From Bacteroidales bacterium (GTDB lineage: Bacteria > Bacteroidota > Bacteroidia > Bacteroidales > UBA7960), in contig SLKR01000042.1 in assembly GCA_007134525.1 (NCBI GenBank), positions 3,672 to 67,671 on the forward strand: a DNA stretch of 64,000 nucleotides, in the 5' to 3' direction. This document shows positions 7,901-58,838 of this stretch, in pieces. A program made the translations under genes and the position numbers. Under the pieces are notes generated by a model. It made no database searches and had not been told where the DNA came from. It saw nothing but the letters and a program-made list of their open reading frames with translations. The number at the start of each line of letters is the position of its first letter. Within the stretch, counting starts at the first letter, position 1.

Positions 7901-8216
7901 GATGCCAGGTAAGACGTTTTGGTTGCCCCCCTTCTGCCGGAACCACATAGATATCGTCATTTCCGTCATACTGAGCAGTAAAAGCAACTAACGCCCCATC
8001 GGGTGAAAAATGTGGCAGGCTTTCGGAGCCTTCATTGCTGGTAAGCCTTCTTGCATCTCCTCCGCCCCTTTCAACGACCCACAGGTCGTTGGCATACACG
8101 AACACTATCTGGGTTTCACTTATACTTGGTTCGCGCAGCAGCAGAGTCCCCTCGGATGCTGTCAGGCTTCCTGACCAGAACCAGATGGTAATGATAAAAA
8201 GTATTGCTCTTTTCAT
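4989..8216 (-). CDS. Tricorn protease homolog (S41 family, beta-propeller + PDZ + S41 core), secreted
   Basis: 1075 aa. Signal peptide present. Repeated TolB-like SPDG propeller blades. The C-terminal S41 region includes NERAGSGGD. Confidence 0.85.
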   Translation of the reverse strand: MKRAILFIITIWFWSGSLTASEGTLLLREPSISETQIVFVYANDLWVVERGGGDARRLTSNEGSESLPHFSPDGALVAFTAQYDGNDDIYVVPAEGGQPKRLTWHPGTDRVMGWTPDGENIVFTSGREGVPTKESQFFTIHKEGGVPEKLPVPRAVSGQISPDGRRIAYQEVSFSDPEWRNYRAGQAKPVWIMNLEDHSLIKTPQADGERHMDPVWLGNKVYFISERDFAANIWSFDVDSRVLNQETFHADFDVKNIGSGGGVLVYEQGGSLHILDPENGEAEQLVINVRGDFHWSRTRWEDVSPGSLQNASLSPSGQRALFEYRGEVFTVPREHGDPRNITNTPGIADRYPAWSPDGSRIAWFSDEGGEYGLVIGDQGGLGETRKISLPEPSFFFRPEWSPDGKYIAYTDTHLNLYYVDVESGEAVHVDTDRFVRPERTMQPVWSPDSRWIAYAHTLESLFKAIVLYNVETGERIQATDGMADAVTPVWCQSGEYLYFLASTDYGPNTGWLDMSAYDSPVTRALYVMVLSKEGVSPFLPVSDEEDEGENAEENGSSIAEIDPDGIMRRIVAADIPSRNYTGLLKGPEGYVFYFEDVPGQQGLTLHRYNFNERESESFMSPVNYAVTSYDRSALLYRSGGTWGIVDAGGGTHSPGDGRLNAVDNIRMRIEPKEEWRQMFREGWRLQRDFLYVDNVHGAPWSDIYDWYRPWVDHVRHRSDLNYVIGIMGGEVAVGHSYIFGGDMPGIEQVPVGLLGADYEIENGNVRFSRIYDGEDWNPGLRAPLSAPGINVREGDYLLEVNGVRVDGTTNLYSYFEGTAGRQTRIRVNDRPTYEESRLVTVIPVANENQLRIMSWVEDNRRRVDELSGGRLAYVYVPNTSGLGYQFFNRYYFAQQDREGVVIDERNNGGGSAADYMIDIMSRELFGYFNSRAADRRPFTTPMAGIWGPKVMIINERAGSGGDLLPYMFRKKELGPLIGTTTWGGLVGIWDTPSFIDGGRMMAPRGGFFNTDGEWAVEAEGVAPDIEVEQIPGKVIMGHDPQLERAVEEALRLLEENPVELRPEPEPPVRYRRPQR

Positions 8217-28239: not shown

Positions 28240-29313
28240 ATGAAAAAATATTTTCTGGGGATATCCCTTGTTTTACTGGCAGTAGTTCTGCTGGTATTTT
28301 TTTTGGCCGAGCTGCCCTACAGTGTCCGCGGAAAAGGTGTAGTGGGCCCGCTTAAGGAGTGGGGGCTCTATACCGCATCCGACGGTACCCTGATGAACAA
28401 ACTGCAGGACAATGCGAGTGGTGGCCTTAAAGAATACAGGGTGATGGAGTTCCAGCGCGGTGACGTTGTAAGTTTTTTCTTCAACGACAGGCTGGAAACA
28501 AGTAAAGTGGTAAGCAGGGGCGACACTATTGCCTGGTTAATTTCCAATGACCTAAGGATGAGGCTGGTTGAAACAAGAGGTGAATTAGCCCACCAGGAAT
28601 CGCTGCTTCAGGTTTACCTCACGGGTGAGAAACCTGAGGCTGTCCAGAAGGCCCTTGACGAGGTTGAGCTTGCACGTCAGGAGCTGATTACCCAGGAAAG
28701 AATCACGGAAAGGATTTCCCACCTGTACGAACAGGACCTGGTTTCAACCCAGGAGTATGAACTTGCCCTCAACGATCTGGAAGTAAGAAGATACGCTCTT
28801 GAGATTGCATTGTCGAACTATGAAACAATTATCGCCGGAGAGAAGGAAGAAGAGATAGGTGCGGTAAGGGCAAGGATAGAGTCACTGGAGAAGCAGGTGG
28901 AACAACTCCAAAAACACATAGACGACATGAACATACTGTCCCCGATATCAGGCAGCATACTCAGGAAGAGGAACCTGGAGCATACTGAAAACGAAGAGGT
29001 AATAAGGGTGGCTGACCTGAGTTCCCTTTTGGTGTTCGTTCCTGTTGACGTGCATGAAACAGAGTACATCCATCCGGGCCAGGAGGTTATTATAAGCAGC
29101 CTGAACAAAAAGATTAATGCTTCGGTTCATTCGATAGACAACAGCGTACAGTTGATAAACAACAGGCCCAGGATCTTTGTGTCTGTTGTTATTGACAATT
29201 CCGACGAAACAGGGCTTATTCCGAATATGGTGGTCGATGCAAAGATAATAACACAGACAGTTTCAGTAAAAGAATATATTTCACGTATATCAAGAGTTGC
29301 ATACCAGAACTAA
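28240..29313 (+). CDS. HlyD-family periplasmic adaptor (membrane fusion protein)-like
   Basis: Single N-terminal TM helix. A long coiled-coil segment (about aa 110-230). C-terminal beta-barrel-like region (ILSPISGSI...). No pump gene is adjacent. Confidence 0.65.
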   Translation: MKKYFLGISLVLLAVVLLVFFLAELPYSVRGKGVVGPLKEWGLYTASDGTLMNKLQDNASGGLKEYRVMEFQRGDVVSFFFNDRLETSKVVSRGDTIAWLISNDLRMRLVETRGELAHQESLLQVYLTGEKPEAVQKALDEVELARQELITQERITERISHLYEQDLVSTQEYELALNDLEVRRYALEIALSNYETIIAGEKEEEIGAVRARIESLEKQVEQLQKHIDDMNILSPISGSILRKRNLEHTENEEVIRVADLSSLLVFVPVDVHETEYIHPGQEVIISSLNKKINASVHSIDNSVQLINNRPRIFVSVVIDNSDETGLIPNMVVDAKIITQTVSVKEYISRISRVAYQN

Positions 29314-29317
29314 AAAG

Positions 29318-30061
29318 ATGCTGAGGTACGAACGAAAATATCTGGCTCCCAACTATCTTATGGATGATTTACGCAATCGTATCAAAGGTTTCGTAAGGGA
29401 AGACCTGTATGCAACGACCAACGGCAACGGATTACCCCAGTATACAGTAAGAAGCATATACTTTGACAGCCCCGACCTGGTTTGTTATCATGAAAAGATC
29501 GAGGGGCTGATGCAGAGAAGGAAATTAAGGGTCAGGGGCTATAATAATTACAGATCCGGGGATATGGTAGTTCTCGAGGTTAAAAGGAAGATAGGCAACA
29601 GGATAAAGAAGCACAGGGCAATGACAAGGTACAAAAACCTTGAAAAGCTGCTTAGCACCGGCAATTTCAATAAATACCTCGCAAGCGGGCTGTGCAACAG
29701 CAGGGAGCGGGACATTGAAGACGCAAAGAGGTTCTTCTTTCACTACAAGCTTAGACCATTTGCACCCACAACCCTGGTTACATATGACAGGGAGGCCTAT
29801 CATGGGAAACTGAATCCTGGTATTAGGATAACATTCGACAAGAACATAAGGAGCAGGAATTTCCCGCAGATGCATGAGTTATACTCAAACAACGATCTTC
29901 GTTATCTGTTCAAGAGCCATTTTATCCTGGAAATCAAGTATTTTGAAGAAAGTATGCCCGGCTGGGCAAAAAACATAGTTCATGAGTTCAAGCTTCGCCA
30001 TGAAGCCTTATCAAAGTATGTAATAGGTTTTGACGTAAACAGGACCTTTGCCCATTATTAA
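29318..30061 (+). CDS. VTC domain protein (triphosphate-tunnel, polyphosphate-polymerase type)
   Basis: N-terminal YERKYL tunnel motif. About 247 aa, Lys/Arg-rich. The ATG at 29318 lies 4 nt after the HlyD-like stop, and the ORF-track start at 29297 is a TTG. Confidence 0.7.
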   Translation: MLRYERKYLAPNYLMDDLRNRIKGFVREDLYATTNGNGLPQYTVRSIYFDSPDLVCYHEKIEGLMQRRKLRVRGYNNYRSGDMVVLEVKRKIGNRIKKHRAMTRYKNLEKLLSTGNFNKYLASGLCNSRERDIEDAKRFFFHYKLRPFAPTTLVTYDREAYHGKLNPGIRITFDKNIRSRNFPQMHELYSNNDLRYLFKSHFILEIKYFEESMPGWAKNIVHEFKLRHEALSKYVIGFDVNRTFAHY

Positions 30062-30078
30062 TTGTTTTTCTGGTATCC

Positions 30079-30753
30079 ATGGTAAATGACTTTTCTGATA
30101 TATTCACGCTGTCTATCAGCCTCAGGGACGTAATTCTTAACCTGCTTGTAGCCCTGCTCTGCGGTTCCATTGTCTCGCTTCTTTACAGGCACACCTACAA
30201 GGGGCTGAATTACTCGGCATCTTTTGCTGTTTCAATGATTATGCTAACCATGATCACCTCAATTGTGATAATGGTTATAGGTAATAACCTGGCAAGGGCA
30301 TTCGGCATGGTCGGGGCAATGTCAATAATCAGGTTCCGTACCGCAGTAAAGGACGCAACCGATATTATGTTCATCTTCTTTGCCCTTACCATAGGCCTTG
30401 CCGCTGGTGTAAAAATGTATGTGGTTGCAATATCGGGCACACTTTTTATAAGTTTTATATTTTTGATAATCAGCCAGCTGGATTTCGGACAGAAACAAAA
30501 GCGGGAATACCTGCTTCAGGTACTTGCTGATTCTGACAATGTTTCGGCAGGTGAGATTGACAAAGTGCTCAGACAGTTCAGCCGCAAATTCAAACTTGTA
30601 AATGTCAAGGCACTTGGAGAGGCAGGCAGTGAGCTTATGGAATACTCCTATCATGTATTCCTGAAAAATGACGACAGTGGAAACGTCCTGATCCTGGAAC
30701 TCAAGAAGATGACAAATGTCAAGAATGTCAATCTATTCTTTGATGAGAATTAA
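30079..30753 (+). CDS. DUF4956 family membrane protein
   Basis: Four TM helices with the conserved MSIIRFRTAVKDATD segment and a soluble C-terminal domain. The pairing with a VTC-domain gene is typical. Confidence 0.7.
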   Translation: MVNDFSDIFTLSISLRDVILNLLVALLCGSIVSLLYRHTYKGLNYSASFAVSMIMLTMITSIVIMVIGNNLARAFGMVGAMSIIRFRTAVKDATDIMFIFFALTIGLAAGVKMYVVAISGTLFISFIFLIISQLDFGQKQKREYLLQVLADSDNVSAGEIDKVLRQFSRKFKLVNVKALGEAGSELMEYSYHVFLKNDDSGNVLILELKKMTNVKNVNLFFDEN

Positions 30754-30768
30754 AAACCTTAATGGTTT

Positions 30769-33700
30769 ATGGGCTTATTTGCTTCAACAGGTTGGAAGTG
30801 CCGGATAATATACGGCACTATTCTGGCACTCTTTGCTCTGCCCTTAGTAGTAAATGCTCACAGAGACGGTGACAGAACTGTTAATCAGCCACCCGACCCT
30901 GTTTTCTCGCATAATGGGGGATTCTATAACAATGCTTTTGAGTTGTCCGTTGAGGTGGATACTGCCGGGGCATCATACTCCATTGATGAACTTGAGATAA
31001 GGTACACAACAGACGGCAGCATACCGTTACCTGACAGTCACCTGTACACTTTACCCATTGAGATTACAGACCGTGAAAGTGATCCAAACGTACTTTCACT
31101 CATACCAACAAATACTATACAGCCCGGCCCGCTGAACAACCACTGGGAAGAACCCCGGGGTAATGTATTCAAGATAAACACAATTCGTGCAAGGATATTT
31201 GCCACTGACGGAAGTGCAGGCAGAACAGTGACCCATTCGTACCTGGTAGATGCCGGTGGCAGCACCCGTTACTCAATGCCGGTGGTGTCCCTTGCAAGCC
31301 ATCAGGGAGCATTCTTTTCACCAGATTCAGGTATATACGTTCCCGGCCATCATCAGAACTACAACCAAAGAGGCCGTGACTGGGAAAGACTTGTCCATGC
31401 AGAGTTCTTTGAAAAAGACGGGGCAAGGGCATTTGCACAAAACGTGGGCATAAGGATCCATGGGGGCACAAGCCGCCACAACCACCAGAAGTCCATGAGA
31501 CTATATGCCCGCAGCGACTATGGAGATTCGTGGATCGACTATTCTGTGTTTCCTGACAAGGAGATCAACAGATACAAGCGTCTGCTGCTCAGGAACAGCG
31601 GCAACGACTATAACGGAACTCTTTTCAGGGATGCCTTCATGCAGTCTCTGCTAAGGGACCTGAAACTTGACATTCAGTATTCACGTGCGGTAATAGTATT
31701 CCTTAACGGTGAATACTGGGGTATACATAATATCCGTGACAGGCTGGATGACCGATATCTGCAAACACATTACGGAATTGAAAATGACGAGGATTATACC
31801 ATACTTGAGCTCAATGCCAGACTCGACAGTGGCGACCCTGCCGGCATAAGGCACTACAATGATATGTTAAGGTTCCTGGAGGAAGACGGGGTTATTGACA
31901 GGGAGAATTATGAGAAGCTCGGTACTATGATGGATATCGAAAACTTCGCCACCTACCAGATCGCAAACATCTATGTGATGAATACCGATTGGCCCGGGAA
32001 CAATATCCAGTACTGGAGGGCAAACAGTGATTATGACCCGGATGCCCCTTACGGCCTGGACGGCAGGTGGAGATGGCAGGTGTTTGACATGGATTTCGGG
32101 TTCGGACTGTTTTACAACTACGTGCCGGGTTTTCTTGACATGTCGGCACATAACACCCTGCAGTTTGCCCTTGCACCAAACGGGCCTGCCTGGCCAAATC
32201 CCCCATGGTCAACATTTCTTTTCAGGAAACTTAATGAAAATGAATCATTCCGGAACTATTTCGCCATACGTTTCGCCGACCTTTTGAACACTGCTTTCAG
32301 GGAGGATGTAGTTTCAAAGCGGCTGGAGGAATTCAGGGATTTATACAGGCCGGAGATAGCCGAGCACATTCATCGCTGGGGTAAGCCGGGCAGCATAGAT
32401 CGTTTTGAATCAGCTGTGAAAAGGATGAATGATTTCGGAGGGCAGAGGCCAAAGCATATGCGCCGGCATCTTGCCGAAGAATACAGGCTGGGCCCCGCTG
32501 CAGGTCTAAACATCATGATACTCCATCCGGACCAGGGAAATATCAGGGTAAACACAGTTGAGGTCGGGCAGAGTGAAGAACAGTGGTCTGGTATTTACTT
32601 TGAGGGCATGAAGATGGAGCTTGAGGCACTTCCTGTACCTGGTTACCGTTTCAGCCACTGGGAGGGAGTAAGTAATAAATCCTCCACCAGGACAAACTTT
32701 ATATTTGAGGGCGAAACCGATATTGCAGCATACTTCCAGGACGCCCTCCTGCATTTCTGGCACTTCAATAATCTGCCCGAAGGTGAAATAATGGCCGTTG
32801 AGGCTGATTTCAGCGCCAATGAAGGGGCCGTGATAACATATCCGGGCCAGGGCGAAGGGTATATGGACCGCACAGACGGCATCCTGCTAAATTCACATTT
32901 GCAGGCACCGGCTGGTTACGGACTCAGGGTGCGTAACCCTTCAGATACAAGGGAGCTGATCCTGGAAACCCCTTCAACAGGTTACAGGGATATAGTCCTG
33001 TCCTTCGCCCTGAGGCGAACGGCAAATGGCGCAAGGCAGCAGGCAGTTTATTACTCGACCGACGGAGGAGAAAACTGGACACATATGGGCGAGATTTACA
33101 GCATCGAAGAGGAATATGCTGTTCACAGCTTTGATCTCAGCGAAAAAGAAGAAGTAAACGATAACCCTGAGCTACAGTTCAGGATAGTGTTTAAAGGAGA
33201 AGAGGCGGGCAATGCAGATGGCAACAACCGTTTTGACAATATTGCAGTCAGCGGTATATCGGCCGAAATAAAGCTCAGCCATTACCAGCCTGCGGAAGGC
33301 TTTGAGAATGAAAAGTACCGGGGGCATTACTTCACAACATCAGGGGGGGCACCCCCCTATCAATATGAAATAGTTTCAGGAGAGCTCCCGCAAGGCATGA
33401 TACTGGGTTCAGGCGGGTTTCTCTCAGGCACACCCTCGGAAAACGGTACCTTCATGTTTGCTGTTAGATCAACTGATTCGGAGGGTAATGAAGCCAAAAG
33501 GGATTACACCCTGGAGATAAATTTCATGGCACTGATTCATTTCTGGCACTTCAACAATCTGCCTGAGGGAAACCTTTCCCTTGTTGAGTCAGATTTCTCC
33601 ATTGGGGGTGGGAAGGCTGGTATTACATATCCCGGGACAGGGGCGGGCTATATGGACCGTACCGACGGAAGCCTGCTAAACATCAGGTTAGGCTACGGTG

Positions 33701-34344
33701 CAGGCTATGGCCTCAGGGTAAGGAATCCTTCCGATACAAGAGAGCTGGTGATAGCAGCACCATCGACCGAATATGAAAATCTGAGGTTTTCATTTGCAGT
33801 TCATCGAACAGCAAACGGTGCGTGGCAACAGAGGCTGTATTACTCTCCTGACCTTGGAAGCAACTGGACAATGATAGATGAGTCATACGGGATAGGGATG
33901 GACTATGATATCCTTGAGTTTGACCTCTCGGATTACAAAGAGGTTAACAATAACCCTGATCTGAAGCTGAAAATAGAGTTTATGGGAGAGGAAGCCTCAG
34001 GTGATACGGGCAATAACCGGTTTGACAATATTTCCCTGGAAGGGTTAAGGTACAATGTGCCCGCCGGTGAAATCCCGCATAACACATCAAGTCTGGGACA
34101 GAATTATCCAAACCCCGTTACCAGTCTTACAACTATACCGGTAGGGCTCAAACAGGGCGGAAGGGTAAGGATTGATATTTTCAGCTCCAGAGGCATACAC
34201 ATTGCCAATATAGTTGATTTAAAGCTAAGTCCTGGCGATCATGAATTTGTTTTTGACGCCAGCCGGCTAAAAACAGGCATATATATCTACCGGATGCAGA
34301 GCCCGGGAATGGTCCAGAGCCGCCGGATGATCATTGTCAATTAA
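30769..34344 (+). CDS. CotH kinase-family protein, secreted, T9SS cargo (CotH-1)
   Basis: Signal peptide present. Chitobiase/Fn3-associated-like N-domain. CotH core (RIHGGTSRHNHQKSMRLYAR...LLLRNSGND). Then two copies of a 172-aa module flanking an Ig-like domain. Ends in a T9SS C-terminal domain. Confidence 0.8.
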   Translation: MGLFASTGWKCRIIYGTILALFALPLVVNAHRDGDRTVNQPPDPVFSHNGGFYNNAFELSVEVDTAGASYSIDELEIRYTTDGSIPLPDSHLYTLPIEITDRESDPNVLSLIPTNTIQPGPLNNHWEEPRGNVFKINTIRARIFATDGSAGRTVTHSYLVDAGGSTRYSMPVVSLASHQGAFFSPDSGIYVPGHHQNYNQRGRDWERLVHAEFFEKDGARAFAQNVGIRIHGGTSRHNHQKSMRLYARSDYGDSWIDYSVFPDKEINRYKRLLLRNSGNDYNGTLFRDAFMQSLLRDLKLDIQYSRAVIVFLNGEYWGIHNIRDRLDDRYLQTHYGIENDEDYTILELNARLDSGDPAGIRHYNDMLRFLEEDGVIDRENYEKLGTMMDIENFATYQIANIYVMNTDWPGNNIQYWRANSDYDPDAPYGLDGRWRWQVFDMDFGFGLFYNYVPGFLDMSAHNTLQFALAPNGPAWPNPPWSTFLFRKLNENESFRNYFAIRFADLLNTAFREDVVSKRLEEFRDLYRPEIAEHIHRWGKPGSIDRFESAVKRMNDFGGQRPKHMRRHLAEEYRLGPAAGLNIMILHPDQGNIRVNTVEVGQSEEQWSGIYFEGMKMELEALPVPGYRFSHWEGVSNKSSTRTNFIFEGETDIAAYFQDALLHFWHFNNLPEGEIMAVEADFSANEGAVITYPGQGEGYMDRTDGILLNSHLQAPAGYGLRVRNPSDTRELILETPSTGYRDIVLSFALRRTANGARQQAVYYSTDGGENWTHMGEIYSIEEEYAVHSFDLSEKEEVNDNPELQFRIVFKGEEAGNADGNNRFDNIAVSGISAEIKLSHYQPAEGFENEKYRGHYFTTSGGAPPYQYEIVSGELPQGMILGSGGFLSGTPSENGTFMFAVRSTDSEGNEAKRDYTLEINFMALIHFWHFNNLPEGNLSLVESDFSIGGGKAGITYPGTGAGYMDRTDGSLLNIRLGYGAGYGLRVRNPSDTRELVIAAPSTEYENLRFSFAVHRTANGAWQQRLYYSPDLGSNWTMIDESYGIGMDYDILEFDLSDYKEVNNNPDLKLKIEFMGEEASGDTGNNRFDNISLEGLRYNVPAGEIPHNTSSLGQNYPNPVTSLTTIPVGLKQGGRVRIDIFSSRGIHIANIVDLKLSPGDHEFVFDASRLKTGIYIYRMQSPGMVQSRRMIIVN
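32740..33255 (+). repeat. CotH-1 internal module copy A1 (about 172 aa)
   Basis: LLHFWHFNNLPEG...GYGLRVRNPSDTRELI...RRTANGARQQAVYYSTDGGENW...NNRFDNIAVSG. This module recurs at 33529-34053 and twice in CotH-2. Confidence 0.8.
33529..34053 (+). repeat. CotH-1 internal module copy A2 (about 175 aa)
   Basis: LIHFWHFNNLPEG...GYGLRVRNPSDTRELV...HRTANGAWQQRLYYSPDLGSNW...NNRFDNISLEG. Confidence 0.8.
34102..34341 (+). other. T9SS C-terminal sorting domain of CotH-1
   Basis: NYPNPVTSLTTI...GIYIYRMQSPGMVQSRRMIIVN. The pattern is typical of Por-secretion CTDs. Confidence 0.75.
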
Positions 34345-37300
34345 CCAGGATAAAAGATCCTTGCATACCTGCCATCTTCAGTCCTGAGTATGTAGTAACC
34401 GGGAGATAATACCGGAAGATGCAGTATGCCGGAATTTTCCCAACGGGTTATAAGTCTTCCGCTGGTGTCGAAAAGGCTGATGTTTTCCTCTTTAAGCAGG
34501 TAAATGGTTCTGCCGGTTACAGGGTTTGGATATACAAACAGCTCTTCCCTCCCACCCGCACCGGGATCAGCGAAGCCTTTCAACACTATGTTGTCAAAAC
34601 GGTTATTGCCACTCTGCCCTGCCGATTCAGGCCCCAGGAAAAAGATCCTGAACATAAGGGAGGGGTTATCTCCGGCATTTTCAAGATCTCTGAGATCAAA
34701 TGTCTGCACCTGGTAATCAGTAGTTATCCTGTAGGGAGGCCCCACACTCTCCCAGTTTAAACCCCCATCGGCTGAATATTGAAGTAACTGCCACCCTGCC
34801 CCGTTGGATGTACGGTGCACTGCATATGACAACCACAGGTGATCAAAACCGGTGCTGGATGCAGAGAACCGTAGTTCTCGCCTGTTTGAAGGGTTTCTCA
34901 CCCTTAGGCCGTAACCAGCTGAAACTCCTGACCGGCTGTTGAGTTCGCTTCCTTCGACCCTGTCAATCCATGCGTCACCCTCTCCGGGATAGCAGATATA
35001 GGCAATTTCTTTACCGGCACTGTAATCGGCAAAAATAGTATCGGGCGAACCTCCATCCATGTCATTGAAGTGCCAGAAATGAACAAGATCATCTCCGAAA
35101 ACCCTTATCCTGAAACTCCTGCGCGAATATTGCTTCTCTGCATCCCTTACTTCCACCTCAAAGGAATAGCTCCCTTCATTTGCGGGTTTCCCGGTTATAT
35201 GGCCCCCATCAGACAGCTGCAACCCTTTTGGCAAACTTCCAGAAACGACCTCATAAATGAATGGGGCTTCCCCATAGGCGGCTTCAAGCCGGGCAAGGTA
35301 ATCTGAACCTTTCTTTCCCGGGGGGAGTAATGTATGCCTGAAGCCAAGCCTCTCTTCACTGACAGAAATATTGTCGAATACAGCTCCTGTGCCATCCTTA
35401 TCTGAATTTGACACACTCAGCTCTATCTTTACCATTAGGTCGGGGTTATTTGCGGTCCAGCCTATACCTGCAAGTTTGTTCTCATAAAGCCTGTACTCTG
35501 TGGTCAGCATTACTTTGGGATTAATCAGTTCCCAGTTTTTGCCTCCGTCAGGAGAAACATATACTGATTTGAGTATTTTTCCACTACCCAGGACCTTTGC
35601 GGCATATGAGAAATTTAGGTTTTTGTGTCCTGTGGTCGGAGTGGAAAATATAATTTCACTGCTTCCCTGCCCTCCCTTAACAAGTAAAGCCCGGCCGCTT
35701 CCGGATCCGCGGCGTTCATTAATTTGCGAGCCGTCATCAACAACCCTTAAATTGCCTGCTGCTCCGGTGATCAGAAATGCGTCAGGATAAAAAAGGCTGT
35801 GATCTGCAATAACAGTGTCAGGGGCATAACTTTCTGTGAGGCTGTTGAAATCCCAGTAATGCAGTAGTCCGTCCCTGAATACCGCCGTAATACTGGTATC
35901 GCCCTTAAGGTCAATACTGGTACGGGCCGGACTGCCTCCGGGCAACCCGATCCAGTGGCTGAAGATCATTCCCTCACCCGGTATTGCTTCCACTTCTACA
36001 GGCACGCCCTTAAAATATATCCCCTCCCAATTTGCCGGATCCTTCACACCGGAAAGTTCGCCGCTTATCTCAATACTGTTTATTCTTATTCTTCCCCTTG
36101 CAGGATCGGTATTCAGATTTACCCTGGCGGTACCGGGCAAGTCAAATAGATCCATTATCTCCCCTCTTTGAAGGCCGGGACGTCTTTTAATAAAGTCCCT
36201 TATATGAGAGCTGCCCTCCACCGGATTAACCCCCCAGCGGTCCATGTCGTGCAGAGCTTCACCTATTACGGCCTGAAGTCTGTTATCAAGAAGAGCTGCT
36301 CCATGTGAGGGCAGAAAATCGGAATTCATCATATCTGCAAAACGATTTATGAAGTTTCGCCTGAATTTCTCATTCTCCATCATACCCAACAGCATTGCAG
36401 ATGCCTCTGCTGAAGGATCCATGACATCTGTAAGTAGCATGTAATTAACATCTGTAAAGGCATTGTCAAGATCCCAGACCAAAACCCTCCACTTGCCATC
36501 CTTAAAAGGGTCAGGGGCAGTTTCCCTGACCCTCCAGAGGCGAAAATGCTTGCTGCCTGGGTTATCCCTACCTCCCCAGTCGGCATTGGCCAGATATATC
36601 ATGCCAATGTAGTAATCAATATAGCTGTCGATATCAAGTTTTGTAGCAAGAAGGCCGAACTTCTCATTATCTGCCATATCATTCCCGGTAATGAAACCAT
36701 ACATTTGGTCAAAAAAACCGGCATCCTCCTGCCGGCCTTCCTCAATCTGATGATAGTCAACAGGCCTGTATGGAGAGTTTAGGATTATTACATTATCCGG
36801 GTCAATATCATACTCATATGCAATATGATACCTGTCCTGGCGATCCCTTATGTTAACCAGACCCCAGTAGACCCCGTTAATAAAATGCACTGCCGGAAAT
36901 GCCCTCTGCACACCGACATTCATACCGGCCATCATATCCTGTGCAACAACATCCCTGATCACCTGTGTTGCATTGCCCCCGCTTCTCAGCAAAATGCGCT
37001 TGAAAACATCTGAATCCCCTTCAACAGGCCCGGGCCGGCCAAGGCCTGGAAAGAAAACATGCCTGATATCGTTTTCCGTATCATAAATGTTACGGGCATA
37101 CAACCTCAGAGACTTTTTCCTGTTTGAGCGGCTCCAACCTCCATGTATCCTGATACCAAGGCCCTGCTTAAATTCAAGCTCCCCACGGGGGCTAAACAGC
37201 TCAATGTGGGCCTCCCTTTCCCAGTCAGGACCGCGGTATCCCCAATTTGCCGGGGCAGCCGGCCAAACTGGGTCGGCAGGATTATTTTCCCGCCAGGTAT

Positions 37301-38339
37301 CAAAGGCCCTGCCAGCAACATAAATCCCCCGGTAATAGTCAAAAAGAGAGGTATCGGGCAGACTGACCGATATTACAGGCAGTCCGAAACGTTCATGAAC
37401 CATCTTGCCTACCAGGTAAGTATTGGTTACCACAGGGCTTGGCAGATAACCCTCGCTGAAAGCCCTTGCCCTGACAATTCTGGCCCGCATCACATCTCCT
37501 GCAGGAAGCTCTGGCTGCGGTGTGAATGATGTATTTATACCGGCAATACCTTCTCCAGCACTCATTTCACCAATAAGTACAGGGTTTATGTATGGGTGAG
37601 ACTGAAAAAAGCCTTCTGCGAAAGGGGCCGGGCTGTCATGCGGGTGCATGGGATACCCATTCTTATACTGAAAAGTGCTTCCCGCGGTATTTAAAGGGTC
37701 AGGGACAGATCCGTCAAGTGTAAAATATATCCTGGCCCCTTTTTCAGCTTCAAGCCCAAGCATGAAGGAGGCAGAATAAAAACCCCCTTCATGGGTAAAA
37801 CCCGGGGGTTCAAGGATGTCTTTGTATGCTGCACCTGTATTCGGGGCTCCGGGCGTAGGCCTGTCAAAGAAATACCACTCTTTTCCCTCTCCCGGTTTAC
37901 GGCCTATGGAAATATCAGTTGGTATACTGGTCGGCTCCAGCAAGTCAATCATCTCCCCTCCTGGACCAGAAATAAGAACCTCCTCCCCACTGGTGTCGAT
38001 CGAGAAAATGGTGTGAAGTGAATATTTATCCTCTTTCCGGTTTTTTCCTGATGCCCATACCAGCAGATATTCATCAGGCTCTATGATAACATCTGGAAAG
38101 GTCCACCTGAAAGGATCATTAAAATTGTCTGACAAACCAAAGCCCTTTAGGTTCAATGACTGACCCCCAAAATTGTGGATCTCTATCCAGTCGGAGAAGT
38201 CTCCGTCCTCATCACTTATGGTTGATGAGTTGGAGGCCATTACCTCGTTTATCATTATATCCTGCGGGAGAGTGCGCAAGGGAAGGCCCAGCACAAAAAC
38301 CAAAAGAAGGGTCAGGCTATTTCCATACATATTGAACAT
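34341..38339 (-). CDS. CotH kinase-family protein with N-terminal lamin-tail domain, secreted, T9SS cargo (CotH-2)
   Basis: Signal peptide present. LTD-like segment (IMINEVMASN...DWIEIHN...EYLLVWASG). CotH core (IRIHGGWSRSNRKKSLRLYAR...ILLRSGGN). Same module-Ig-module-CTD tail as CotH-1. Confidence 0.8.
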   Translation of the reverse strand: MFNMYGNSLTLLLVFVLGLPLRTLPQDIMINEVMASNSSTISDEDGDFSDWIEIHNFGGQSLNLKGFGLSDNFNDPFRWTFPDVIIEPDEYLLVWASGKNRKEDKYSLHTIFSIDTSGEEVLISGPGGEMIDLLEPTSIPTDISIGRKPGEGKEWYFFDRPTPGAPNTGAAYKDILEPPGFTHEGGFYSASFMLGLEAEKGARIYFTLDGSVPDPLNTAGSTFQYKNGYPMHPHDSPAPFAEGFFQSHPYINPVLIGEMSAGEGIAGINTSFTPQPELPAGDVMRARIVRARAFSEGYLPSPVVTNTYLVGKMVHERFGLPVISVSLPDTSLFDYYRGIYVAGRAFDTWRENNPADPVWPAAPANWGYRGPDWEREAHIELFSPRGELEFKQGLGIRIHGGWSRSNRKKSLRLYARNIYDTENDIRHVFFPGLGRPGPVEGDSDVFKRILLRSGGNATQVIRDVVAQDMMAGMNVGVQRAFPAVHFINGVYWGLVNIRDRQDRYHIAYEYDIDPDNVIILNSPYRPVDYHQIEEGRQEDAGFFDQMYGFITGNDMADNEKFGLLATKLDIDSYIDYYIGMIYLANADWGGRDNPGSKHFRLWRVRETAPDPFKDGKWRVLVWDLDNAFTDVNYMLLTDVMDPSAEASAMLLGMMENEKFRRNFINRFADMMNSDFLPSHGAALLDNRLQAVIGEALHDMDRWGVNPVEGSSHIRDFIKRRPGLQRGEIMDLFDLPGTARVNLNTDPARGRIRINSIEISGELSGVKDPANWEGIYFKGVPVEVEAIPGEGMIFSHWIGLPGGSPARTSIDLKGDTSITAVFRDGLLHYWDFNSLTESYAPDTVIADHSLFYPDAFLITGAAGNLRVVDDGSQINERRGSGSGRALLVKGGQGSSEIIFSTPTTGHKNLNFSYAAKVLGSGKILKSVYVSPDGGKNWELINPKVMLTTEYRLYENKLAGIGWTANNPDLMVKIELSVSNSDKDGTGAVFDNISVSEERLGFRHTLLPPGKKGSDYLARLEAAYGEAPFIYEVVSGSLPKGLQLSDGGHITGKPANEGSYSFEVEVRDAEKQYSRRSFRIRVFGDDLVHFWHFNDMDGGSPDTIFADYSAGKEIAYICYPGEGDAWIDRVEGSELNSRSGVSAGYGLRVRNPSNRRELRFSASSTGFDHLWLSYAVHRTSNGAGWQLLQYSADGGLNWESVGPPYRITTDYQVQTFDLRDLENAGDNPSLMFRIFFLGPESAGQSGNNRFDNIVLKGFADPGAGGREELFVYPNPVTGRTIYLLKEENISLFDTSGRLITRWENSGILHLPVLSPGYYILRTEDGRYARIFYPG
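34344..34560 (-). other. T9SS C-terminal sorting domain of CotH-2
   Basis: LFVYPNPVTGRTIYLL...GYYILRTEDGRYARIFYPG. Confidence 0.7.
34575..35092 (-). repeat. CotH-2 internal module copy B2
   Basis: LVHFWHFNDMDGG...GYGLRVRNPSNRRELR...HRTSNGAGWQLLQYSADGGLNW...NNRFDNIVLKG. This is a close relative of A1 and A2. Confidence 0.8.
35353..35873 (-). repeat. CotH-2 internal module copy B1 (divergent)
   Basis: LLHYWDFNSLTES...SVYVSPDGGKNW...AVFDNISVSEE. It has the same order of conserved blocks as the other three copies but is more diverged. Confidence 0.65.
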
Positions 38340-38342
38340 ATT

Positions 38343-38945
38343 TCAGGGCCTCTTACAGAGCATATCCAACAGCTCTGAATAAACTTTGTGTACCGGAAGG
38401 CCCATCACATTGTGGTACGAGCCCTGTATCCCGCTTATCCCGATATACCCGATCCACTCCTGGATTCCATAGGCTCCTGCCTTGTCAAAGGGGGAGCAGC
38501 TGTCAATATAGTATCTTATTTCGTCACTCCTGAGCTCTCTGAAACTGACAAGGGAGTAGTCGTGAAATATCCTTTCATCATCCAGTTTTCGCATGCATAC
38601 ACCCGTATACACCTCATGTGTACTGCCTGAAAGGGCTGTCAACATTTTGAAGGCTTCGCTTTCGTCGCCGGGTTTGTTTATAATATCCCCTTTGTGCACC
38701 ACTATTGTGTCGGCTGTAATAACCAATTTACCGGGGTCTTTCAGCTCCTGTTCAAAACATGCCGCCTTTTGTCTGCAAAGGTATTTTACAACCTCCAAAG
38801 GGGGCAGGTAACCAGGGAAAACTTCTGGCACAGGCCTTGCCATGACACGGAAAGGGATCCTTGCACCTTCCATCAGGAGTTTTCTGCGGGGCGACTGGGA
38901 TCCTAATATTATATCATATCTGCCGAAACAGTCAAGACACTTCAT
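38343..38945 (-). CDS. maf: Maf family nucleoside-triphosphate pyrophosphatase
   Basis: ILGSQSPRRKLL motif and the C-terminal GAYGIQ motif. 200 aa. Confidence 0.9.
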   Translation of the reverse strand: MKCLDCFGRYDIILGSQSPRRKLLMEGARIPFRVMARPVPEVFPGYLPPLEVVKYLCRQKAACFEQELKDPGKLVITADTIVVHKGDIINKPGDESEAFKMLTALSGSTHEVYTGVCMRKLDDERIFHDYSLVSFRELRSDEIRYYIDSCSPFDKAGAYGIQEWIGYIGISGIQGSYHNVMGLPVHKVYSELLDMLCKRP

Positions 38946-42766: not shown

Positions 42767-45631
42767 TTACTTCCTTTTTATTATCATTTCAGAGGCATTT
42801 ACCTGAGGGCCGCTTATTTTCAGAAGGTATAACCCGCTCTGGCTTCCGGCACCGTTAAGTCCGATGATATAACGGCCCCCCTGATCCGGAATCAACCTGC
42901 TGCTTTTCACCAATCTTCCCTGTATGTCAAAAACTCTCAACAGGTGCTCAACAGATATACCCCTGCCAATATCAATCGTGAATACATCATTGAAAGGATT
43001 CGGATATATGACAATATCATCGGGGTAAGTCAGGGTTGCTTCGAGCGGTTTATCCTCAATCATACTGTAGTAGTCCGCTGCCCTGAATGTATTGCCGGTC
43101 ATTGTTTCAAGGTCTTCAGCCAACTGGACAGCAAATGCCAGGCTCAGGGTATCGCCCGGGGCCAGTATGTGTGGTCCGCTGCCTATCAGTGAAGAGATAC
43201 TGTTATCCTCTTTGTAACTTCCTGCTTGCATACGGTTTGAGGTAAGCGCGGTAAACTTCTTAAAGTCTGTAAACCCATTGTTTATCCTTATACTCCCTCC
43301 ACTACCCTGGTTGTCAAAGGCATAATGCCTGAGCGGCATGTGGTTGAGAAGCTGCAATCCCGCGTAATTCCCCCCTTCTTCTGAATAACTGTAGGCAAGC
43401 CTGGTTGCCACATCGATTGCAGCCCTGTGCTGTTTATTGTCCCTCAGAACCCAGTCGGCAAAAAACCCGATATAAAGGGATCCAAACTCTACTGCTGACT
43501 CATTTATTATATCATAGTCAATTATGAAGAAATCTTCAGGTACATCATCATTCCAGAAATATGCATTGTAATTGACAACAATACCAAGGGGTCTTTTGCC
43601 GCTTTCAGAGAGATCAGACAGGCTTCCGCTGACCTTTACCGGAGCAATGGGATTATCATAGCTTATAACGGGAAGTGTAAGAGGATGCAGGCTGTTGCTG
43701 AAGCTGGCTGAATCAGCGCCATAGATATTGTCTGCAACCTCAAATACACTGTTGGCTATAAGAATTCCTGCACAACTTACTGCTGTATAACCGTTTCTGT
43801 AGATCAGCCCCCTGCCCTGGGAGTAGTCAGGATAATTGAAGCCAATTGCACCTCTGGATGATATTGTAGTGCTAATTGGCCCGGCATCAATATTCACATA
43901 GTCTGCGTTAAGTATCCTGCTGAACGACTGCCTGCCTGCAAGCCGGTTATCAGAGTCATAAAACCGAAGGGTGAACACAACATCGTGGTTTGCAGGAATA
44001 TCTCCGGAAACACTTATTATAAATGGATCTTCAGTATTATCAAAGGTCTCGTATGTTGAAAGTGGCCCTATAAACAAAGTGTCTGAGAGAACCTCTGTCA
44101 ATTCGCAATCAGTTTCGAGTACGGCCCTTAAGATTCCTGACGACGACAGCAGGTTCTTCATCCTGAATGACAGATCAAGTTGCTGTCCTGGTCTAAGCGA
44201 TAAAAACTCATCCTCAGGCTGAAGGTATTCACAGACTGTGATATAAGGGCGGTGATCCTCTGTCAGTGAACGAAAAAGGTTGATGCGTCCATACCCGAGC
44301 TGCCCCCGGTATTCACCGTTGTCTTCAACTTCATCTGTGCTGTCGGCCGTTATCTTCATCAAGGCGGCTATCTGCATTGCATCCATCTCAGGAAAGAATG
44401 ACCTCAGTATCGCAGCTGCTCCGGCAACTACTGGCGCTGCCATAGAGGTACCTCCCGAAAACAAATAAGTGTCGTTTACCCAGGTTGACAACATCCTTAC
44501 CCCGGGTGCGGTAAGATCAACATACGGGCCGTAACTAGAAAAACCTGTTTTGCTGTCAAGGCTGTCAACAGCTGCAACACTCAATACATTCTCCAGTGAA
44601 GCAGGATAAAATGGGTCATCATTCCCGGAATTTCCTGCAGCAGCAACCACAAGCGCATCCTGGTTCAATACCGCATAGTCGATTATATCACTGGCAAATG
44701 GACCCGGGTTGAAGTGACTGCCCCATGAGCAGTTTATTACTGATGCACCCTGGTCGGCAGCATAAACAATGCCCTCATAAGCCCTCACCAGCCGGCCGAA
44801 CTCATCATCGACCTTGACGGGCAGGAACTTCGAATGGTACCCTACACCTGCAATTCCAATCCCATTATCGGGGGTTGCTGCAGCAATGCCGGAAACGTGC
44901 AGCCCGTGCGCTGAATTATTGAAGCTTGGGTCATTGTTCCCCTCGCCAAGATCCCAACCGTAAAAATTGTCAACATACCCGTCCCCGTCTGAATCCTCAC
45001 CATTTACCGGGTCATTATAATTGTATTTGATCGCTTCTGCAAGATCGGGGTGAGTCAGTGAAACACCGGTGTCAACTATCCCTATCACTGTATTTGTATC
45101 ACCCCGGCTTATTGCCCAGGCACTGAATGCTTCAATACTCTCAAGGTAATACTGGTCGGGGAGCAGTGGGTCGTCCGGATAATGCATATCTGGAACTTCG
45201 TATGTAAAATTCATAAGCTCCGGCAAATAGCGTTTCTGAACATATTCAACCATACCTGTTGAAGCTATCTCCCTGATAAGCTCATTGGCCGACCTGTCGC
45301 TTCCTGTAACAACTTCATAAATCCTTGAAAGGTCGGCAAAAGGCCTTCCCGAAGGATGGTATTTTACCGCAGGGGCTCTGTGATCCGGAAATAACCTGTA
45401 CGGCCCGTCAAGGGCCTTTTGATTGAAAATTCCCGACAGCAGTAGTGGCAGTCCTTTTTCATCCTTCTGTACACCATGCAACCCCTCCCTTAACTTGAAT
45501 ATTACATGCCCCGGCAAAACTGCACTGCCTTCACCCTCATAACGGGATGGGGCTTCTGCCGTTGACTGAAGCAGCGGAAAAAGAGAATATAAAAGGACAA
45601 TAACCAATATCCGTTTCACATAGATTGACAT
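42767..45631 (-). CDS. S8 subtilisin-like serine peptidase, secreted, T9SS cargo
   Basis: Catalytic triad contexts IGIVDTGV (Asp), HGLHVSGI (His), GGTSMAAP (Ser). Signal peptide present. C-terminal CTD. Confidence 0.9.
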   Translation of the reverse strand: MSIYVKRILVIVLLYSLFPLLQSTAEAPSRYEGEGSAVLPGHVIFKLREGLHGVQKDEKGLPLLLSGIFNQKALDGPYRLFPDHRAPAVKYHPSGRPFADLSRIYEVVTGSDRSANELIREIASTGMVEYVQKRYLPELMNFTYEVPDMHYPDDPLLPDQYYLESIEAFSAWAISRGDTNTVIGIVDTGVSLTHPDLAEAIKYNYNDPVNGEDSDGDGYVDNFYGWDLGEGNNDPSFNNSAHGLHVSGIAAATPDNGIGIAGVGYHSKFLPVKVDDEFGRLVRAYEGIVYAADQGASVINCSWGSHFNPGPFASDIIDYAVLNQDALVVAAAGNSGNDDPFYPASLENVLSVAAVDSLDSKTGFSSYGPYVDLTAPGVRMLSTWVNDTYLFSGGTSMAAPVVAGAAAILRSFFPEMDAMQIAALMKITADSTDEVEDNGEYRGQLGYGRINLFRSLTEDHRPYITVCEYLQPEDEFLSLRPGQQLDLSFRMKNLLSSSGILRAVLETDCELTEVLSDTLFIGPLSTYETFDNTEDPFIISVSGDIPANHDVVFTLRFYDSDNRLAGRQSFSRILNADYVNIDAGPISTTISSRGAIGFNYPDYSQGRGLIYRNGYTAVSCAGILIANSVFEVADNIYGADSASFSNSLHPLTLPVISYDNPIAPVKVSGSLSDLSESGKRPLGIVVNYNAYFWNDDVPEDFFIIDYDIINESAVEFGSLYIGFFADWVLRDNKQHRAAIDVATRLAYSYSEEGGNYAGLQLLNHMPLRHYAFDNQGSGGSIRINNGFTDFKKFTALTSNRMQAGSYKEDNSISSLIGSGPHILAPGDTLSLAFAVQLAEDLETMTGNTFRAADYYSMIEDKPLEATLTYPDDIVIYPNPFNDVFTIDIGRGISVEHLLRVFDIQGRLVKSSRLIPDQGGRYIIGLNGAGSQSGLYLLKISGPQVNASEMIIKRK
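42770..43015 (-). other. T9SS C-terminal sorting domain of the S8 peptidase
   Basis: IVIYPNPFNDVFTIDIG...GLYLLKISGPQVNASEMIIKRK. Confidence 0.75.
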
Positions 45632-54215: not shown

Positions 54216-56399
54216 TTACTCCCCGAGCTTTCTCAGAAGGCTTATGGCATCCTTCTGTTCCTTGATTATATATTTGGCTGCAGTCTGGGAAAGCCCCACC
54301 TTAACTGACCATGCATGCTCAGGCATTGTCTGGAACAACAGTTCATCAGACCAGCCTGCACCAATAGCAAGTATAAAGTCATACTCCTTCCTTGAGAGCC
54401 AGTGCATTGCCAGCTCACCCTTGTTTATACCCGAGTTGCTTACCTCTATAACCTTGCTGCCGTGAATTACATGGGCACTTATATTGGTTGTGATCGAAAG
54501 CAAATGGTCATTTACCTCCTTGACAAGTTGTGATGCCTGTTCGATATCAGCACGGTGGTAATGCCACGCAACCGAATAATCCCGCTCCTGTATAAAGGAT
54601 CCAGGAAGCCTGTCGGTATACATCTCCAGTATTGGGATTACCTCATCCTTCCACTCTGAGGAGAGTGGCTTCAGAAGTCTCCACTCCTTGCGGCCGGCTT
54701 CACGTATCCACGACCCGTGCTCTGCCGTTAGGTTTATGGGCAGCTCTCCCAACCACTCATCAAGTTCATCCTTGCCCCTGCCGCTTATTATCACAATATC
54801 GGTCTTTACCTGGGAGTCCAGTGTCTCCAGCAGGCCAAGCAGTGCATCAGGCGGTTCGGCCATTGCGGGGTACTTGGTAAAAGGTACCAGTGTCCCGTCA
54901 TAATTGACGATCACTATGCGGTTTTTCGAGCCCCTGTACTCCGATACCAGTTTTTTATACAGTTCCGGATCAAGGAACTTCTTGCTCAGTGAGTCCCTTG
55001 TCACCCTGGTGTTCTCGACCAGCGCGTTCACAAAATCATTGGCCCACTTGGTAACATCATACCTTTTAAGCCTCTTTTGCATTATCTTATTCCTCCTTAT
55101 CTGGTCCTTAACAGGAATTACAAGGGCCTCAGAAATGGAATCAGCTATCTCGTCAATATTGTTGGGATTGATTATTACCGATTCGCTCAGCTCCTTTGCC
55201 GCACCGGTAAATTCACTCAGAATAAGCACACCCTTCTGGTCCCTGAGCGATGCTATATACTCCTTGGCTACCAGGTTCATTCCGTCTCTAAGCGGGGTAA
55301 GCAGAGCAACATGGCTTTTGCGGTACTGGGCAATGAGCTGTTTGTGCGGCAGGCTTGTATACTGGTAAATAACCGGGGTCCAGTCCATGCTGCCGAAGTT
55401 TCCGTTAATCTGCCCGACAAGCTCATCAAGCCTGCTCTTGATCTTCTTATATGACCCAACCCCTGTCCTCGAAGGAACAACTATCATGTTCAGGTATACT
55501 TTCCCGATCCATTCCGGGTTCTTCTCCAGAAACAGCTCAAACCCCTTGAGCCTGTTAATTATACCTTTTGAATAGTCGAGACGGTCGACCGAGAGCACCA
55601 TTTTCCTTTTTGGGTTTTTAGTGGTAATGTGGGGCGATACATTCATGGTGTTGAACTTATTGAAGTCAATCCCCATAGGGAAGGTTTCAGCTTCAACTGT
55701 ATGATCAGGCATAGATATTCTGCCCATATGATTTTCCTTGCCCAGTATCCTGAGGACACAACGCAGGAAGTGCTGGGTGTAGTCGTGTGTGTGGAAACCC
55801 ACCAGATCGGCTCCAATCAACCCTTCAAGTATTGCTGTACGGCTTTCTTTGTGCAGCATACGGTACATTTCGTAGGAAGGGAATGGTATGTGAAGAAAAA
55901 AACCTATCGGATTTTGCACCTTTTCACGCAGCAGTGCCGGCAAAAGCATAAGATGGTAATCATGTATCCATATAATATCGTCCTCCCTTAGCTCTTTAAG
56001 CACCTCATCCCTGAATATCTCATTCATCCTCTTGTATTCCTCCCAGAATTCAAGGTCAAAACGTGCATAATTCGGAAAATAATGGAAAAGCGGCCAAATG
56101 GTCCTGTTGCAAAAACCCAGGTAGACCTTGTCCATAAGTTTTTTTGACAGAAACACCGGCGAAGCGTTAAACTCTTCCCTGACCCTGTCCCTTAAATGGT
56201 CTTCATCTTCCTTTTCCACGCTGTTTCCCGGCCAGCCCATCCATACATACTCCTTTATTTCAGATTTGTTTTTGCCGAGTCCAGCCAAAAAATCGCTCAT
56301 TCCGGAAACCAGCCCGCCTGCGCTCTTGGTCATGGTAAACTCTCCGTTATCCTTGCTCACCACTACCGGCAAACGATTAGATACTATCAGTAGCCTCAT
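54216..56399 (-). CDS. otsA: Bifunctional trehalose-6-phosphate synthase (GT20) / trehalose-6-phosphate phosphatase fusion
   Basis: N-terminal MRLLIVSNRLPVVV GT20 signature. The C-terminal HAD-IIB module has IVIVNYDGTLVPF. 727 aa. Confidence 0.85.
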   Translation of the reverse strand: MRLLIVSNRLPVVVSKDNGEFTMTKSAGGLVSGMSDFLAGLGKNKSEIKEYVWMGWPGNSVEKEDEDHLRDRVREEFNASPVFLSKKLMDKVYLGFCNRTIWPLFHYFPNYARFDLEFWEEYKRMNEIFRDEVLKELREDDIIWIHDYHLMLLPALLREKVQNPIGFFLHIPFPSYEMYRMLHKESRTAILEGLIGADLVGFHTHDYTQHFLRCVLRILGKENHMGRISMPDHTVEAETFPMGIDFNKFNTMNVSPHITTKNPKRKMVLSVDRLDYSKGIINRLKGFELFLEKNPEWIGKVYLNMIVVPSRTGVGSYKKIKSRLDELVGQINGNFGSMDWTPVIYQYTSLPHKQLIAQYRKSHVALLTPLRDGMNLVAKEYIASLRDQKGVLILSEFTGAAKELSESVIINPNNIDEIADSISEALVIPVKDQIRRNKIMQKRLKRYDVTKWANDFVNALVENTRVTRDSLSKKFLDPELYKKLVSEYRGSKNRIVIVNYDGTLVPFTKYPAMAEPPDALLGLLETLDSQVKTDIVIISGRGKDELDEWLGELPINLTAEHGSWIREAGRKEWRLLKPLSSEWKDEVIPILEMYTDRLPGSFIQERDYSVAWHYHRADIEQASQLVKEVNDHLLSITTNISAHVIHGSKVIEVSNSGINKGELAMHWLSRKEYDFILAIGAGWSDELLFQTMPEHAWSVKVGLSQTAAKYIIKEQKDAISLLRKLGE

Positions 56400-56413
56400 C
56401 TTATATTATTATT

Positions 56414-58837: not shown

Positions 58838-58838
58838 T

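Follow-up and report, generated by a model that had tools for sequence, protein, structure and literature searches.

Genes for a CotH-family protein, a VTC-domain protein and a DUF4956 membrane protein lie next to one another in the pel loci of Gram-positive bacteria (PMC7112168, PMC12345266). Mutants of S. intermedius in the CotH and DUF4956 homologues have altered Pel levels and show less aggregation (PMC7112168, PMC12345266), and a 2025 study of pel loci did not find the cotH-PPP-DUF4956 synteny outside them (PMC12345266). Here, we describe loci that lie outside pel, beginning with one in a 64,000-nucleotide stretch from a Bacteroidales bacterium (contig SLKR01000042.1, positions 3,672 to 67,671; hereafter the window). 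The window holds, in a row, genes for an adaptor of the membrane-fusion protein type, a VTC-domain protein, a DUF4956 protein and a CotH protein (CotH-1), which are met by a convergent CotH paralogue (CotH-2). The same three families are adjacent in S. intermedius SIR_1592-1594 (cotH-PPP(VTC)-DUF4956) and in C. perfringens NELoc-2. The first-pass annotation of this DNA had mentioned a co-occurrence of CotH, VTC and DUF4956, and the published pel loci bear this out. While the CotH-VTC-DUF4956 synteny is already published, full-text searches of the literature found no description of the form coupled to an adaptor.

For the VTC family, the point of reference is the yeast VTC complex of Vtc4, Vtc3 or Vtc2, and Vtc1. 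A cryo-electron microscopy study of VTC found that eight residues at the triphosphate (K200, R264, R266, K281, Y359, R361, S457 and K458) and one at the Mn ion (E426) are required for polyphosphate synthesis and that K458 is replaced by Ile or Leu in the inactive Vtc2 and Vtc3. In what follows, we report that the adaptor, VTC and DUF4956 genes form a conserved unit, referred to as the trio, and we propose that this unit may export polyphosphate, with CotH as an optional neighbour.

A conserved adaptor-VTC-DUF4956 gene order

A scan with a VTC profile, taking one genome per species, returned 80 loci with VTC identity down to 48%. All are from Bacteroidota, with members in the Bacteroidales, Sphingobacteriia, Saprospirales/Saprospiraceae, Cytophagaceae, Flavobacteriales and Echinicola. 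The closest relatives of the window locus are metagenome-assembled Bacteroidales genomes with sediment-type sample names, and the best of them (L001) has a VTC protein that is 92% identical. An adaptor homologue was found directly upstream of the VTC gene in 80/80 loci, and DUF4956 directly downstream in 80/80 wherever the contig continues. Gaps cluster between −4 and +7 nt for adaptor and VTC and between 2 and 20 nt for VTC and DUF4956. In the reverse direction, metagenomes were searched with an adaptor profile, which gave 17 loci; the same three-gene order was present in 17/17, as far as the contigs reach. Clustering of 989 neighbouring genes from the 80 loci identified no other family shared by more than about one quarter of them. 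Because the order holds in loci found from VTC and in loci found from the adaptor, and no other family is common, the core conserved unit is adaptor, VTC and DUF4956 in that order. The module is not a chance arrangement, since the three-gene order was found again in every related locus examined. The first-pass annotation had expected linkage of four families; linkage of the adaptor, VTC and DUF4956 stands, and CotH, which lies near the trio in only 24/80 loci, falls out of the core.

In the window, the four co-directional genes are separated by gaps of 4, 17 and 15 nt, and the convergent CotH-1 and CotH-2 genes overlap by 4 nt. These open reading frame (ORF) coordinates agree with the layout first described, in which four co-directional genes had gaps of 4 to 17 nt and a CotH gene converged on them.

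Three loci from monoderm bacteria were compared with this arrangement. The Planococcus locus (Bacillota) has VTC, DUF4956, CotH, a 690-aa protein, a HEAT-repeat protein and a glycosyltransferase, an arrangement that matches C. perfringens NELoc-2. Pseudobutyrivibrio has GT2, CotH, VTC, DUF4956, GT4, an acyltransferase and pyruvyl transferases, and Nonomuraea (Actinomycetota) has VTC, DUF4956 and CotH. The adaptor is absent from all three. Since the monoderm loci have none, the adaptor appears exactly where an outer membrane exists. The Planococcus gene 5' of VTC was considered as a hidden adaptor and was rejected, being unrelated to the adaptor.

Fourteen of the loci numbered L060 to L079 (Saprospiraceae, Flavobacteriales and Cytophagaceae) also carry a gene for a lipoprotein of about 320 aa (e.g., L072:11399-12370). 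In 12 of the 14 loci, this gene directly follows DUF4956, with both on one strand, and in the other two (L062 and L079) it comes directly 5' of the adaptor; CotH is nearby in L062 only. The lipoprotein had no match in Pfam, NCBIfam or the sequences of the Protein Data Bank (PDB). Possibly it is another kind of partner, in the periplasm or at the surface.

Components of the trio

The VTC gene occupies 29318..30061 of the plus strand and encodes a predicted cytoplasmic protein of 247 aa. The longest ORF begins at a TTG at 29297, while the ATG at 29318 agrees with all homologues. The VTC domain was recognized by PF09359 (E=1.5e-37) over positions 2-231 of the 235 in the model. A single-sequence search of the PDB returned nothing useful for this protein, whereas a profile of the VTC proteins matched only Vtc4, Vtc2 and Vtc3 among solved structures, with Vtc4 (3g3q) at 1e-11. 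In the strong hidden Markov model (HMM) alignment, K7, R71, R73, K89, Y156 and R158 correspond to Vtc4 K200, R264, R266, K281, Y359 and R361. With the full-length broad profile, E205 is placed at Vtc4 E426 by a weak local alignment (ILEIKY...P.W versus VLEVKL...PEW), and S232-K233 is assigned to S457-K458 by motif and spacing; a profile of the C-terminal part alone gave no alignment to Vtc4. None of these nine positions varies among 12 sequences drawn from two phyla, Bacteroidota and Bacillota. The tunnel residues of the polymerase that had been proposed earlier are therefore kept, as judged from alignment and motif spacing. The protein also appears to retain the Ser-Lys pair by which active Vtc4 differs from the inactive Vtc2 and Vtc3. 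From its sequence, it is a candidate polyphosphate polymerase of the Vtc4 type, which would synthesize polyphosphate.

Hydropathy analysis of the VTC protein identified no signal peptide and no transmembrane (TM) segment, in line with its first description as soluble. The same analysis gave a single N-terminal helix for the adaptor and several helices for DUF4956. The 247 residues comprise the VTC domain only, with neither an SPX domain nor a fused Vtc1-type TM domain, so the protein is outside the architecture of the eukaryotic VTC complex.

The DUF4956 gene (30079..30753, plus strand) encodes an inner-membrane protein of 224 aa, a candidate for two roles, the channel and the adaptor's partner in the inner membrane. 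It matched PF16316 (E=3e-14), and its match to the MgtC family of Pfam was sub-threshold, with 23.3 bits against a cut-off of 31.4. The AlphaFold2 (AF2) model, with a predicted local distance difference test score (pLDDT) of 68.7, has five helices over residues 15-134 followed by a beta-alpha-beta-beta-alpha-beta domain over residues 143-221. The earlier count of four TM helices is replaced accordingly. In Foldseek, this ACT-like C-terminal domain resembled the C-domain of MgtC (2lqj, 3e-4). DUF4956 is a family related to MgtC but separate from it.

DUF4956 is the most conserved member of the trio, with 56-100% identity among the homologues listed. Its invariant core reads MLTMIT..VIMVIGNNLARAFGMVGAMSIIRFRTAVKD, and R73, R85, R87 and K91, which lie in or beside helices, are invariant as well, as is a C-terminal NLFFDE. 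The invariant basic residues recall the basic rings that line the yeast polyphosphate channel. The NLFFDE segment (residues 218-223) is acidic, and in yeast an acidic helix of Vtc4 latches the mouth of the channel; this parallel is speculation. Because the basic residues in the loops follow the positive-inside pattern, the model fits a topology with the N terminus out and the C terminus in, which would place the ACT-like domain in the cytoplasm, beside VTC.

The DUF4956 family is large, comprising 6682 clusters at 50% identity, and its homologues carry the JGI label “YhiD.” A full-text search found no functional study of DUF4956. On plasmid pSymA of Sinorhizobium meliloti (L086, 5284-8645), DUF4956 lies between the genes for a caspase-domain protein and an NAGPA phosphodiester glycosidase, a different, proteobacterial context with no VTC, adaptor or CotH. 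In B. thetaiotaomicron, the pair BT3498-BT3499 (DUF4956 and DUF2490) is listed in an iron-responsive transcript table (PMC10434189), and DUF2490 may be another type of outer-membrane partner for DUF4956 in Bacteroides.

The adaptor gene occupies 28240..29313 of the plus strand and encodes a membrane-anchored periplasmic protein of 357 aa. Its matches to sequence models of HlyD/RND adaptors all fell short of the curated cut-offs (PF16576, 26 bits; TIGR01730, 1e-11). The AF2 model (pLDDT 82.7) contains a TM helix (residues 2-22), a long alpha-hairpin (residues 103-228) and a beta-barrel domain. The best Foldseek match of this model was MacA (3fpp, 1e-14), with EmrA at 3e-12 and the MacAB-TolC and EmrAB-TolC assemblies within 1e-14 to 1e-11. 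The adaptor thus models as a MacA/EmrA-type protein anchored in the inner membrane. The RLS motif of such adaptors, RxxxLxxxxxxS, which binds the tip of TolC, was defined previously (PMC3391258). We identified it as R158-x3-L162-x6-S169 in the turn between helices 132-164 and 170-228, i.e., at the tip of the hairpin. R158 and L162 are present in 27/27 adaptor homologues, and S169 is present in 17/27, with Ala or Pro in the others. In 6/80 loci, the trio has a TolC-family gene (PF02321, 1e-43) as an immediate neighbour.

No ABC, RND or MFS transporter was found among the Pfam-scanned genes of the window, which include all genes within about 10 kb of the module, and no such family recurs across the 80 related loci. 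The first-pass annotation was right that the adaptor lacks a pump partner of these kinds.

A proposed polyphosphate export model and its competitors

From the observed gene order and its conservation, together with the computed folds, active-site and docking motifs and secretion signals, we infer the following scheme. The cytoplasmic VTC protein would make polyphosphate from ATP, as yeast Vtc4 does, and would thread the chain, as it lengthens, into a channel made of a DUF4956 oligomer in place of the Vtc1-type channel of yeast. The adaptor would form a periplasmic duct around DUF4956 and dock tip-to-tip on an outer-membrane channel of the TolC family. The polymer would then leave the cell, with polymerization as the driving force instead of an ABC, RND or MFS pump. 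The two CotH proteins, brought to the surface by the type IX secretion system (T9SS), would draw on this polyphosphate or attach it; it might, for instance, be their phosphoryl donor in a setting poor in ATP. Taken together, the trio would be a polymerization-driven, trans-envelope exporter of polyphosphate with surface CotH as an optional client, and we put the probability of this reading at roughly 0.45. We prefer it as the simplest model because it uses the facts on polymerase, channel, duct and TolC together. A wider claim is that these loci constitute a hitherto overlooked tripartite secretion class of Bacteroidota, in which VTC and DUF4956 are the engine, the adaptor and TolC are the duct, and polyphosphate is supplied to T9SS-delivered CotH as its phosphoryl donor or substrate, with an adaptor-less version in the biofilm loci of Gram-positive bacteria. 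We consider this wider claim tentative and rather doubtful.

Several points weigh against the export model. The TolC gene is near the trio in no more than the six loci mentioned above, and a search of the whole window with an HMM of the TolC-family neighbours from related loci found none, although such partners often have their genes at other sites. The assignment of the counterparts of E426, S457 and K458 depends on a weak local alignment and on motif spacing. The membrane domain of DUF4956, in a model of moderate confidence, resembled no solved structure in Foldseek. No fusion of DUF4956 to VTC or to the adaptor was found among the best 150 of the 6682 DUF4956 clusters, all of which are stand-alone proteins of about 225 aa. 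In the literature, we found no biochemical, genetic or functional study of any bacterial VTC protein. As described below, CotH is out of reach in most of the loci. Finally, DUF4956 may move cargo that is independent of VTC, because two plasmids pair it with an adaptor with no VTC within reach.

The first of these, a Hymenobacter volaticus plasmid (L084, 6844-11825), carries the adaptor (hhalign 9e-63), DUF4956, TolC and then a T9SS protein, with VTC absent within 16 kb. The second, a plasmid of Chondrinema litorale (L090, 6959-9899), carries DUF4956 and then an adaptor of another subfamily (HlyD_3), followed by a 416-aa protein that has no Pfam match; VTC was not found within reach of this pair. 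Because its pairing with adaptors occurs more than once, DUF4956 is probably their inner-membrane partner. The two plasmids, one with TolC and one without, also speak for a different function, in which the trio exports another cargo (a cation, a small anion or a glycan precursor), VTC is a nucleotide- or triphosphate-hydrolysing energizer or regulator, and CotH acts on the same surface polymer. Other triphosphate-tunnel enzymes, the CYTH/TTM superfamily, are hydrolases or cyclases, and the monoderm VTC-DUF4956-CotH genes sit within polysaccharide loci with glycosyltransferases, both of which would suit such a role. However, the match to the VTC family is specific and includes the Ser-Lys pair that distinguishes Vtc4, and none of the 80 chromosomal loci lacks VTC, nor does any locus found from the adaptor whose contig extends past it. 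Another cargo is therefore unlikely in our judgment.

The kinship of DUF4956 with MgtC raises a different explanation. The weak Pfam match and the MgtC-like fold of the C-terminal domain would fit a device for intracellular or inner-membrane homeostasis, in which VTC makes or senses cytoplasmic polyphosphate or triphosphate and DUF4956 is an MgtC-like modulator, e.g., of ATP synthase or a phosphate sensor. In that case, the adaptor would merely stabilize the complex, nothing would be exported, and the adjacency of CotH would reflect co-regulation. MgtC itself is a regulator and not a proven transporter (PMC12345266), as this explanation would have it. An adaptor that is always present, has a TolC-docking motif and has recurrent TolC neighbours is nevertheless hard to explain without passage to the outer membrane, and it is precisely the loci of bacteria lacking that membrane that lack the adaptor. 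We regard homeostasis as improbable, and we return below to CotH under the export model.

Bacteria display or release polyphosphate, and its synthesis in bacteria is generally credited to PPK enzymes. Full-text searches found no bacterial polyphosphate exporter or export route. If the export model is true, a Vtc4-like polymerase with an adaptor and TolC would be a second route of synthesis and a mechanism of export for bacterial polyphosphate. It would also offer an answer to the question of how CotH and other secreted proteins with a kinase fold can act in places with little ATP. Moreover, it would give a testable function to DUF4956 and to the accessory genes linked to pel, for which the streptococcal mutants show altered Pel and reduced Pel-dependent aggregation. 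As the trio is only three small genes, these predictions are simple to test.

CotH neighbours and comparison with known systems

CotH-1 is encoded at 30769..34344 on the plus strand (1191 aa) and CotH-2 at 34341..38339 on the minus strand (1332 aa). Both contain the CotH domain PF08757 (E=2.7e-50 and 1.6e-34, respectively), and their kinase domains are 33% identical. CotH-1 has a signal peptide, CHB_HEX_C/Fn3_assoc, a CotH kinase domain (residues 228-564), Ig-like domains and a T9SS type A sorting domain, while CotH-2 has a lamin-tail domain, a CotH domain (residues 396-721), Ig-like domains and a T9SS sorting domain. The sorting domains scored 26.9 and 29.9 bits with TIGR04183, above the cut-off of 23. 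Pfam and NCBIfam thus support the domain calls made at first sight: Pfam those of VTC, DUF4956 and CotH, and NCBIfam those of the T9SS domains. By hydropathy, CotH-1 has a clear signal peptide that ends in VNA. The N terminus of CotH-2 is hydrophobic and atypical, and its signal peptide is weak because a basic n-region is missing. The earlier claim that both CotH proteins are secreted by the T9SS thus holds for the sorting domains of both and for the signal peptide of CotH-1 but is weaker for the signal of CotH-2.

A single-sequence PDB search with CotH-1 returned nothing useful. A Bacteroidota-only CotH profile missed B. cereus CotH (5jd9), whereas a mixed-phylum profile to which Bacillota were added reached it at 1e-11. 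In this alignment, D187 and D220 of CotH (numbered from the start of the segment at window position 31429) fall on two Asp of 5jd9 that are 23 residues apart. This spacing matches that of D228 and D251 of B. subtilis CotH, which we take to be the catalytic and metal-binding Asp. Both Asp are invariant in 13 sequences and are kept in CotH-1 and CotH-2, so, of the catalytic residues that were in question at the outset, these two Asp are present in both copies. CotH-1 reads D-x4-N and DFG. CotH-2 is without the Asn of D-x4-N, and DNA replaces DFG.

We counted CotH neighbours with an HMM covering two CotH subfamilies over flanks of up to 10 kb. CotH was near the trio in 24/80 loci, in 13/37 of those in which each flank measures 5 kb or more and in 18/46 of those in which each measures 3 kb or more. 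The nearest CotH usually abuts the trio (<300 nt), in at least four arrangements: after DUF4956, before the adaptor, convergent and interleaved. The arrangement of the window, CotH-1 and then a convergent CotH-2, recurs in L002, L003, L013 and L017. Since 56/80 loci, about two-thirds, are without CotH within reach, CotH cannot be required, and with CotH near the trio in only 24 the function of the trio is independent of an adjacent CotH. CotH is therefore a recurrent but optional neighbour: the earlier view of CotH as a module member stands for its recurrence and abutment and fails for its place in the core. By our own estimate, the adjacency is far beyond chance for a rare family. The loci without CotH and the possible co-transcription of CotH-2 with an unrelated maf might suggest that chance or local synteny alone put the window CotH genes next to the trio, without any functional tie. 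This is very improbable given that CotH usually abuts in varied orders and arrangements, that its frequency within 10 kb is by our estimate far above the rare-family expectation and that CotH belongs to the same operon in Bacillota, Actinomycetota and published pel loci. Under the export model, it is unlikely, if conceivable, that CotH uses polyphosphate.

CotH-2 starts 3 nt past the maf stop codon on the minus strand (window 38339-38345), and for this reason its transcript may be shared with three minus-strand genes (DUF2520, HAD hydrolase and maf) and not with the trio.

Other CotH arrangements were observed beside the trio. The cultured Echinicola arenosa CAU 1574 (L080) has the order adaptor, VTC, DUF4956 and CotH. 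In one Bacteroidota locus (L081, 1-13548), the order is CotH, a T9SS protein, adaptor, VTC, CotH, adaptor, DUF4956 and CotH, with the T9SS protein comprising 763 aa and no other domain. A second CotH subfamily, with LTD, PA14, CHB_HEX_C and CotH domains, lies beside the trio in L036, L040, L053, L059 and L078 (e.g., L059:5163-8480). An iterative search (jackhmmer) with this subfamily retrieved the Bacillota CotH proteins of L085 and L089 and none of the window-type CotH, which suggests that the second subfamily reached the trio by separate recruitment or transfer.

The module has ordinary neighbours. In Pfam scans, the genes around it include a Zn-peptidase, surE, lpxB, comEC, recA, gidB, maf, an HAD hydrolase and a CcmF-like gene, and the GC content is flat over the module region. 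A mobile island was considered and rejected because of these housekeeping-type chromosomal neighbours (recA, lpxB, surE, gidB, comEC and maf) and the flat GC content. No ppk gene was found among the Pfam-scanned genes of the window. A sigma-70 promoter scan gave counts near the shuffled expectation, and the sigma-70 consensus differs from Bacteroidota promoters. Elsewhere, the window encodes a homologue of tricorn-type protease (4989-8216), a T9SS-sorted subtilase (42767-45631) and a trehalose-6-phosphate synthase/phosphatase fusion adjoining a GH65 phosphorylase (54216-58909).

These surroundings set the locus apart from the Gram-positive loci linked to pel, which have no adaptor and no T9SS domains and sit inside polysaccharide operons. 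There, the module is contiguous with pelDEADAFG, whereas in the window its place is among Zn-peptidase, SurE, LpxB, Maf and HAD hydrolase genes, with no pel or glycosyltransferase genes near the module by Pfam.

The individual proteins also depart from their nearest described relatives. Bacillus CotH reportedly acts in the cytoplasm of the mother cell, where ATP is available. The window proteins have the Pfam family and the two key Asp in common with the Bacillus CotH kinase (PDB 5jd9) but are multidomain T9SS cargo of 1200 to 1300 aa. DUF4956 shares a multi-helix membrane domain and a C-terminal ACT-like domain with MgtC/SapB/YhiD proteins but differs from them in its invariant core and in the genes with which it is paired. 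In fold, TM anchor, long hairpin and RLS tip motif, the adaptor agrees with the TolC-dependent adaptors MacA and EmrA, and a TolC-family gene is sometimes adjacent. Unlike the MacA and EmrA systems, however, the trio has no ABC, RND or MFS component; its sole conserved inner-membrane partner is DUF4956, and its sole conserved energy-handling enzyme is VTC.

Compared with the yeast VTC complex, the trio contains the same catalytic family with counterparts of the same nine active-site residues, and the polymerase is likewise genetically tied to a small multi-helix membrane protein with conserved basic residues. Here, an SPX domain is absent, the catalytic domain stands by itself as a soluble protein, and an adaptor is added. 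The membrane partner is DUF4956, with about five helices and an ACT-like domain, instead of the Vtc1-type three-helix domain. Finally, the target compartment proposed here is the periplasm or the exterior of the cell, as opposed to the vacuole of yeast.

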